Shown here in pieces: positions 23,875-33,120 of a DNA stretch of 64,000 nt. The translations under genes and the position numbers were made by a program. Position 1 is the first letter of the stretch. The number at the start of each line of letters is the position of its first letter. Source of the stretch: a virus (taxonomy: Duplodnaviria > Caudoviricetes); the IMG/VR virus record IMGVR_UViG_3300014208_000026, positions 96,001 through 160,000 of that record; one strand, 5' to 3'. A model generated the notes under the pieces. That model saw only the letters and a list, made by a program, of their open reading frames with translations. It had not been told where the DNA came from and made no database searches.

Positions 23875-23895
23875 CTATAGAGCCTGTCTGGGTAG
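23875..23895 (+). promoter_or_regulatory. Putative late promoter CTAT-N13-GTAG
   Basis: Exact match to the recurring motif. Confidence 0.65.
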
Positions 23896-32537: not shown

Positions 32538-32558
32538 CTATCCCCTTTCCTTTAGTAG
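32538..32558 (+). promoter_or_regulatory. Putative late promoter CTAT-N13-GTAG
   Basis: Exact motif; flanks nearly identical to 58561. Confidence 0.7.
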
Positions 32559-32577
32559 AACCTAAGGAGAACTCGTT

Positions 32578-33120
32578 ATGAAATCCCTGAAAGCTTCCGT
32601 TGTTCGACTGGCCTACGAGCACCCTGAGTTCCGTGGTGAGCTGCTGGGTGTGCTTGCAGCTCGGCAGGGCCGTAAGACCGCCGCTTCCACAGATCCCATT
32701 GGCAAAGGGAAGAATGGCTACATCGCTTTCTACAAGGGCAAGAAGGTGGAAGTGATGGCCGACACGAAGCTTCAGGCTCAGATCACGGCTGCTGCGTATT
32801 TCAAGGCGAAGAAGTCGTATGAAGTGGATGTTGAACTGGCTGAGACGGACGGTAAGCAGGTGACTCATAAACCGATGTTTGCTTCATCGGTTGAGACAGC
32901 GGCTAAGGCGGACCCAAATCCGTGGAAAGCCACGCACGAAATCACTTGGTCAAAAACTCGAAAAGCTCCTAAGAAAACAGTTAAGGTGATGTTGTCCTCG
33001 GACGGTCAAGTGTACACCAAGCCTGAGTGGGATGCTGGAGACAACGGGGATTTCAGTGTGCATAAGGGGGAATGGCAGTTCCAGGGTGAGCCTTTTGATG
33101 GCTCTGTCAAGAAGCTGTAG
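32578..33120 (+). CDS. Leader-bearing two-domain protein (180 aa); C-terminal domain shared with the 38045 gene
   Basis: AAGGAG RBS; MKSLKASVVRLAYEHPEFRGELLGVL...RKTAA; WKATH...YTKPEWDAG...GEW. Confidence 0.8.
   Translation: MKSLKASVVRLAYEHPEFRGELLGVLAARQGRKTAASTDPIGKGKNGYIAFYKGKKVEVMADTKLQAQITAAAYFKAKKSYEVDVELAETDGKQVTHKPMFASSVETAAKADPNPWKATHEITWSKTRKAPKKTVKVMLSSDGQVYTKPEWDAGDNGDFSVHKGEWQFQGEPFDGSVKKL

Follow-up and report, generated by a model that had tools for sequence, protein, structure and literature searches.

A portable helix-proline-helix peptide on unrelated proteins of a huge phage, a possible address for head assembly

The stretch of viral DNA analyzed here, referred to as the window, comprises 64,000 bp (bases 96,001-160,000) of the 257,181-bp IMG/VR record IMGVR_UViG_3300014208_000026. 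Coordinates with the prefix w refer to the window, and all others refer to the genome record. The record is linear, with 54.8% G+C and a completeness of ~49% (CheckV), and its source is a huge phage with a genome of roughly 500 kb. The window contains three open reading frames (ORFs) whose products begin with a common peptide, below called the tag. The three genes and their tags, the latter scored with a hidden Markov model (HMM), are listed below; lengths are in amino acids (aa).

w32578-33120, + strand: tagged gene P0001, 180 aa
w32578-32670, + strand: helix-Pro-helix tag of P0001, residues 1-31 (HMM E 2.7e-16)
w23924-24373, + strand: tagged gene P0002, 149 aa, directly 3' of the head/neck gene block
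w23924-24013, + strand: helix-Pro-helix tag of P0002, residues 1-30, ending K-L-A-G (HMM E 3.5e-17)
w57583-58539, - strand: tagged gene P0003, 318 aa
w58450-58539, - strand: helix-Pro-helix tag of P0003, residues 1-30, ending K-T-A-G (HMM E 2.9e-16)

A previous sequence-only reading of this DNA had described these ORFs as unrelated proteins with the same N-terminus of about 28 residues. This description was confirmed. The three ORFs were found at the expected positions, their first ~30 residues can be aligned with 11 invariant columns, and once the tag was removed no similar pair remained among the eight carriers now known (best BLASTP E 0.024). Those eight come from a scan of the full record with an HMM, which the same reading had suggested. 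The HMM was built from three sequences and was run against the six-frame translation of 257 kb. It recovered all three tags (E 7e-20 to 3e-19) together with five more copies (E 8e-16 to 1e-3), all outside the window, and the next match had E>1. After one iteration, the eight tags had E-values of 1e-17 to 8e-13, and the next match had 0.18. Unsupervised clustering of all protein ends returned the same eight as the largest cluster. Seven copies are N-terminal, and one is located at the extreme C-terminus of its protein (genome 67416-68114). Since the record is ~49% complete, the phage should carry at least eight copies.

The consensus of the tag is L-R-x-x-h-[IV]-[RK]-L-A-[HY]-x-x-P-x-[LF]-R-x-x-L-h-x-h-h, followed by [KR]-x-A-[AG]. 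AlphaFold2, supplied with a 107-row alignment, predicted a helix at residues 3-16, a break at the invariant Pro18, and a helix at residues 18-38, with a predicted local distance difference test (pLDDT) score of 76. In this model the tag is a pair of short amphipathic helices, separated by the invariant proline. In the case of full-length P0001, modelled from a 3-row alignment, the pLDDT was 45, the tag was left unmodelled, and the linker regions were of low confidence. A Foldseek search of the PDB with the tag model gave no match, nothing was retrieved for the tag from the ESM Atlas, and the tag has no family in Pfam or PHROGs. We found no published account of the peptide in the paper library, which was searched by sequence fragments and by topic.

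The nucleotide sequences of the tags were compared in two pairs. Between the tags of w32578 and w58539, codon position 1 is identical in 20 of 28 codons, position 2 in 23 of 28, and position 3 in 7 of 28, which points to purifying selection on the peptide. The closest paralogue of the P0002 tag is the tag of the gene at genome 82368-82856, directly after the portal gene. These two share 64 of 84 nucleotides (nt), with 17 of 28 third positions identical, and by the same measure they are evidently the younger pair.

Two genes of the head region of the window provide the context for a comparison with related phages.

w12768-13643, + strand: major capsid protein (MCP), HK97-type, 291 aa (phrog_2522, E 3e-50)
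w10491-11870, + strand: scaffold candidate, very acidic, coiled-coil, low-complexity, 459 aa, two genes 5' of the MCP gene

Elsewhere the record encodes a large terminase, a clamp loader, and a phage sigma factor, and the portal gene is at genome 80433-82304. In the protein collection, 1,973 proteins are closely related to the MCP (identity of 83-97% for the best 120 listed), and a relative is encoded in 563 IMG/VR stretches. LR745208.1, an uncultured phage of 485 kb with 74% DNA identity over the MCP region, is the sole related record among 50,697 deposited phage genomes. Six relatives were compared in detail (199-536 kb, 38-64% G+C). MCP identity is 85-88% across the clade, including the tag-less relatives, and 85-87% for these six, in which the portal, terminase, and scaffold-like proteins are merely 34-61% identical. 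Such a constraint on the MCP is unusual: it is kept over phages of 38-64% G+C in which other core proteins are 25-61% identical. The sigma factor is 52-56% identical inside the tag-bearing group, compared with 26-28% outside it, and the tag-bearing genomes look like one subclade.

The tag was taken in the sequence-only reading to be an N-terminal leader. This part was not supported as it stood, as the tag is also C-terminal and internal, both here and in relatives. LR745208.1 has 11 copies, ten N-terminal and one internal, and the count in nine MCP-sharing relatives ranges from 0 to 23. A profile of the eight tags, run against 1.84 billion representative proteins, matched 3,538 clusters at E<=1e-3 and 255 at E<=1e-10. 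All ten matches that were looked up are metagenomic, and one carrier is encoded on a 530-kb contig with typical huge-phage genes. A tblastn search of the 50,697 phage records with a two-tag protein gave a match to LR745208.1 only. In the best 157 matches, a list biased toward multi-copy proteins, the tag was found 127 times at the N-terminus, 62 times at the C-terminus, and 183 times internally, mostly in 2-6 copies per protein. Some metagenomic carriers consist of 2-6 tags, charged linkers, a few mini-motifs, and nothing else. Few carriers have a recognised domain fused to the tag, and these domains are diverse (GNAT, RelA/SpoT, WGR, LRV, and several DUFs).

The bodies can also be followed independently of the tag. 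The body domain of P0001 occurs untagged in metagenomic proteins with quite different N-termini, and P0007, tagged here at the C-terminus, has a homologue in relative G008 that is tagged at the N-terminus. Across seven genomes, pairs of homologues of tagged bodies were tagged in 11 cases and untagged in 12. Tag identity is 0.545 within genomes versus 0.488 between them, a difference reached by none of 2,000 label permutations. Each tag-bearing phage evidently has its own flavour of the tag, which would follow from a common reader in each phage or from paralogy. The tag is portable, position-independent, and widespread in one huge-phage clade.

The carriers differ in what follows the tag. In P0001, the junction R-K-T-A-A-S (residues 32-37) comes after the tag, ahead of a small beta-beta-alpha-beta domain (phrog_19202) at residues 44-89. 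The body of P0002 has no family match. P0003 consists of the tag, two DPTxxMSPExKxKWEANK mini-modules, and three ~75-aa repeats, each placed after K-T-A-[GS]; the mini-module recurs beside tags in metagenomic proteins, and one of the repeats has a tagged homologue in relative G006. In the case of P0004 (L001:6628-7293), body residues 34-99 match PF25632, the family of the fusellovirus virion protein VP2 (E 4.6e-7, above the cut-off).

Four tag genes are located between the phage sigma-factor and large terminase genes, one directly follows the portal gene, and one follows the head/neck block. Three further genes, encoding proteins of 108, 142, and 403 aa (genome 62290-66322; L001:6290-10322), are interspersed among the four tag genes between the sigma-factor and terminase genes. 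All four tag-bearing genomes have them, and the three tag-less genomes do not. By eye, a similar beta-rich domain ends the proteins of 142 and 403 aa, and the sequence patterns of the 142- and ~400-aa proteins resemble those of fibre or beta-helix proteins.

The boundary of the tag is marked by a short motif. The K-x-A-[GA] junction noted earlier at the end of the leader was observed in all three proteins (RKTAAS, KLAGN, and KTAGA). Across 289 metagenomic copies, the consensus on the C-terminal side of the tag is K-[KE]-A-[AG], and that on the N-terminal side of internal copies is K-[DE]-A-S. The present genome has 48 [KR]TA[AGS] sites, with 10.2 expected (z 12). The head/packaging region at 62-122 kb, which holds 24% of the residues, contains 29 of these 48 sites (p 1e-7). 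The scaffold-like protein, which is 34-42% identical in all six relatives, has four of them, and several are close to the ends of very large proteins. Five of the six relatives, tag-less ones included, show the same enrichment (z 3.0-6.9). The [KR]-x-A-[AGS] motif may be a maturation-cleavage site. A second motif, R-[VI]-A-[SGAQ]-R-[YFWH]-x, was seen 15 times at protein ends or between domains of large head-region proteins (window 2914, 17766, 21428, and 23398; genome 17299, 62350, 69041, 83982, 86944-90860, and others), and it contains the [KR]-x-A-[AGS] pattern.

Two complete relatives, G003 and G007, as well as G002, lack the helix-Pro-helix tag. A different N-terminal helix was found there on 32, 30, and 15 proteins, respectively (loci L093-L127 and L190-L202), with the sequence M-[RK]-R-[TS]-A-S-E-h-I-R-x-L-E-x-R-h-A-R-L-E-[KR]-x-[AS]-[SG] and the same [KR]-x-A-[SG] frame. 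This swap fits a system of interchangeable address codes. A ClpP-family gene was observed solely in the tag-less lineages (G007 80907-81554, G003 97119-97763, and G002 163450-164100); it lies outside the head-gene context and has no detectable homologue in the tag-bearing genomes. In a phyletic profile of tag-bearing G000, G005, G006, and G008 versus tag-less G002, G003, and G007, 19 genes were lineage-specific, among them the three (108, 142, and ~400 aa) interleaved with the tag genes. Because the tag-bearing genomes form what looks like one subclade, the profile is confounded by descent, and we claim none of these genes as the reader.

The region upstream of the tag genes was analyzed next to the claim that a late promoter, a ribosome-binding site, and the leader make up one reusable cassette, duplicated around the genome. 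A CTAT..GTAG motif does precede all three genes, with 20-29 nt from GTAG to the start codon, and the upstream DNA of w32578 and w58539, which had been described as nearly the same, is identical at 44 of 58 positions (76%). The promoter-like elements of the window are given below with their position weight matrix (PWM) scores, where available.

w32530-32558, + strand: element before w32578; T-run, CCTATC, 12 nt, TAGTAG (PWM score 41)
w23866-23895, + strand: element before w23924; T-run, CCCTATAG, GGGTAG at 23890-23895 (PWM score 38.8)
w58561-58589, - strand: element before w58539; T-run, CCCCCTATAG, 12 nt, TAGTAG (PWM score 45.2)
w17706-17738, + strand: same class, before the non-tag gene w17751-18905, whose product starts with RVASRWL
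w34215-34247, - strand: same class, before the non-tag gene w34203-33121 (360 aa), divergent from its neighbours

At w32578, GTAG (32555-32558) is followed by the Shine-Dalgarno sequence AAGGAG (32564-32569) and the ATG at 32578. The matrix was built from nine seed sites and found 12 sites in the genome, compared with 0.05 per shuffled genome; ten of the 12 are located 31-51 nt 5' of a start codon on the same strand. A relaxed pattern gave about 17-20 sites. Four of the sites precede tag genes and the rest precede other genes, two of which start with RVASR[YFW]L. The element is commoner at tag genes, both here (4 of 8 versus 15 of 219 genes; Fisher p 0.002) and in relative G005 (4 of 20 versus 11 of 632; p 7e-4). 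It is also present in tag-less relatives, and four of the tag genes are in an operon that lacks it. The motif is evidently a clade-wide promoter-like class and not part of a tag cassette. Thus, the single cassette was not confirmed, as most motif sites precede non-tag genes. The proposed duplication was retained for w32578 and w58539, in the form of an old event and not of a recently copied cassette. A recently copied promoter-leader unit was rejected for this pair on the grounds that third codon positions are saturated (the 7 of 28 given above). Saturation at these positions next to 55 nt of upstream DNA that are still 76% identical indicates an old pair with the upstream DNA held by its own function.

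The 5' leader of w58539 is predicted to form a 10-bp hairpin (-13.4 kcal/mol, z -2.2) with the Shine-Dalgarno sequence in its 3' arm. Hairpins of this kind were seen at w58541-58575 (-) and w23880-23935 (+), with modest z values of about -2.2 to -2.5. The leader hairpin may be a translational control element or simply a part of the promoter.

Three other features of the region were recorded. The ORF just 3' of the MCP gene (w13867-17667) matches a LAGLIDADG homing endonuclease (phrog_11023, E 1e-43) and also DNA-binding proteins and, weakly, methyltransferases; it may be a mobile insertion beside the capsid gene. A transposase-like gene (phrog_506, E 5e-117) is located at genome 93936-95126, just 5' of a 2,229-aa gene that runs into the window. 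Finally, an open frame of 1,858 aa (w50304-55880, -) is antisense to nearly all of a 1,822-aa gene (w50523-55991, +), and codon-usage scoring retained the gene on the + strand.

The explanation that we put first, and hold tentatively, is that the tag is a docking address. A peptide of ~28 residues, attached via a short linker, would mark small proteins of unrelated sequence. One shared partner, made by the phage during morphogenesis, would read it, and the carriers would be recruited into the assembling head as internal cargo or auxiliary scaffold. A maturation protease would then remove the tag at [KR]-x-A-[AGS] on both sides, and the cargo would be ejected into the host. Here the single reader, its place in the prohead, the cleavage, and the ejection of cargo into the host are what we infer. 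We favour an address label because the tag occurs at either end of unrelated bodies, is their best conserved part, is homogenised within genomes, and is swapped wholesale. We favour head assembly because of the gene context, the motif common to scaffold-like and large head-region proteins, and the VP2-like cargo.

Several results weigh against this docking explanation. No enzyme for the proposed cleavage was found: no S77, S78, or S49 prohead protease was found in any genome searched, PF03420 (Peptidase_S77) is absent from the record and from four relatives that are 94-100% complete, and ClpP was found neither in the record nor in tag-bearing G005 (94% complete) and G006 (100%). The MCP is equally conserved (about 87%) in complete tag-less genomes, and because it is unchanged where the tag is absent it does not stand out as a co-varying reader. 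Chains of 2-6 tags with no cargo are common among the metagenomic carriers, and they suit a scaffold or network role better than cargo loading. Duplication alone could explain the similarity of tags within a genome, and the "late" timing of the promoter-like class is an assumption. The tag clade is known from metagenomes, with one uncultured record matched among the 50,697 phage records.

A broader version of the docking explanation is conceivable, but we consider it doubtful. Here the tag would be one word of a modular postal code, in which interchangeable, lineage-specific tags with a common [KR]-x-A-[AGS] site load tens of proteins into the head around a multi-tag scaffold, after which the tags are clipped and the cargo is injected. 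The code would include the helix-Pro-helix tag, the ASE-h-I-R-x-L-E-x-R-h-A-R-L-E helix of the sister lineages, and possibly RVASR[YFW]L too.

The chains of tags lead to the first rival, in which the tag is a sticker that binds itself or a partner and builds a network (a condensate-like inner body or scaffold in the head, or a cytoplasmic factory for assembly or replication), with single-tag proteins as its clients and not as injected cargo. Many of the top matches are just 2-6 tags with highly charged low-complexity linkers and mini-motifs. Sticker-spacer architecture is known in linker proteins such as EPYC1 and CsoS2, and the multi-tag layout matches it. P0003 contains one of the mini-motifs of the multi-tag proteins, and the tag would not be stable on its own, given the number of its conserved hydrophobic positions. 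However, this record and LR745208.1 encode almost only single-tag proteins, and the head/packaging gene context suits the docking explanation too; the two would overlap if the network were inside the prohead. On balance, we regard the sticker as unlikely.

Still less do we expect a hub outside the capsid, where the tag would dock diverse small proteins on some host or phage machine (chaperone, protease adaptor, transcription apparatus, or envelope), for instance to time their activity or turnover. The evidence for portability applies equally to such a hub, and no capsid partner was found for the tag. The tag-gene cluster begins right after the sigma-factor gene and a gene whose product has, by eye, a NusG-like N-terminus, and the fused Pfam domains GNAT, RelA/SpoT, and WGR are typical of host-manipulation enzymes. 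Enzymes are, however, just as typical among the proteins that phages package, T4 Alt being one. The flanking motif, moreover, is common to scaffold-like and large head-region proteins, and the tag genes adjoin portal, terminase, and neck genes.

We consider it quite improbable that the tag has no addressing role and is an ordinary structural unit, such as a single HEAT- or LRV-like repeat or cap, spread by duplication and domain shuffling among small, rapidly evolving phage genes. Its "helix, P-E-L, helix" pattern loosely resembles LRV/HEAT repeats, two of 89 larger carriers also hold true LRV or HEAT repeats, and paralogy can explain the within-genome similarity. Nevertheless, Pfam gave no LRV or HEAT match at E<=1 for the tag itself. 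The tag stands as a single unit at the ends of proteins, next to disordered linkers and at either end of one and the same body. None of the attached bodies is nearly as well conserved, and sister lineages have another end tag on about as many proteins.

An export or RiPP-type leader (ribosomally synthesised and post-translationally modified peptide), read by a transporter or modifying enzyme and cut off at a G-G/G-A-like site, would account for the mostly N-terminal copies ending in A-G or A-A, but it is highly improbable, given bodies of 100-300 aa, the C-terminal, internal, and tandem copies, the absence of any transporter or modifying enzyme among neighbours scanned with PHROGs or Pfam, and the lack of resemblance to double-glycine leaders.

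Huge phages encode hundreds of small proteins of unknown function. If the tag is a shared address, it marks a functionally linked subset of them (8 here and up to 23 per genome) and gives a handle on their common partner. If it loads cargo into capsids, the tag would play the part of the capsid-targeting sequence (CTS) of phage T4 with a much longer peptide, natural and portable, in a clade seen only in metagenomes, and it could be used to package foreign proteins in HK97-type shells. The occurrence of a different tag in the same frame, alongside the same capsid protein, means that genome comparison could reveal the reader and possibly the protease specificity.

By sequence or defining features, the tag belongs to none of the known systems with which it was compared. 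The CTS common to T4 IPI-IPIII and Alt spans about 10 residues, is strictly N-terminal, and suffices as a fusion tag in T4; it is cleaved off at L/I-x-E by the S77 protease gp21 (Mullaney and Black 1996, cited in PMC10052503). Like the CTS, the tag is a short peptide on unrelated proteins of a large phage, with a short site after it, and loading into the prohead core is proposed here as well. In contrast, the tag has ~28 residues in a helix-Pro-helix arrangement, is also C-terminal, internal, or tandem, and is set in the [KR]-x-A-[AGS] frame in phages where no S77 protease was found. By eye, it does not resemble the CTS.

The head and ejection proteins of phiKZ and SPN3US have N-terminal propeptides of 20-254 aa that are removed by gp175/gp245 at [AGS]-x-E, and the processing was demonstrated by mass spectrometry (PMC10052503, PMC5694885). 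These giant phages are similar to the present one, as interpreted here, in having removable regions on many head proteins and a motif repeated in scaffold-like regions. They differ in that their propeptides are not described there as one common sequence and the motif is another, and in our case processing is a proposal. In addition, the small HK97-type MCP found here (phrog_2522) is not what would be expected of a phiKZ-type MCP.

In phage P22, a C-terminal basic helix-turn-helix of about 30 residues docks the scaffolding protein on the HK97-fold coat in the procapsid and carries fused cargo. The tag is likewise a two-helix unit of about 30 residues. However, the P22 domain is confined to one scaffolding protein, and no sequence or fold match to it was obtained.

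The encapsulation peptides of bacterial microcompartments (BMC) are short, joined by a linker to either end of the cargo, and read by the inner face of the shell. They share with the tag, as modelled, an amphipathic helix that is linked to the N- or C-terminus. No match to BMC shell proteins (PF00936) was found in the record, which is ~49% complete. Encapsulin cargo-loading peptides are also attached by linkers to either end of unrelated cargo and are read by the interior of an HK97-fold shell (PMC8346489). Both kinds of peptide are similar to the tag in being short, linker-attached, and present at either end of unrelated proteins. Unlike the tag, both serve cellular compartments and not virions and have another consensus, and the encapsulin peptides have no putative cleavage frame.

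The Rubisco-binding motif of the pyrenoid is single on clients and tandem on EPYC1-type linkers, at varied positions, and its reader is the Rubisco small subunit. It differs from the tag in belonging to a eukaryotic organelle with a known reader, and it resembles the tag in combining single-copy clients with tandem linkers.

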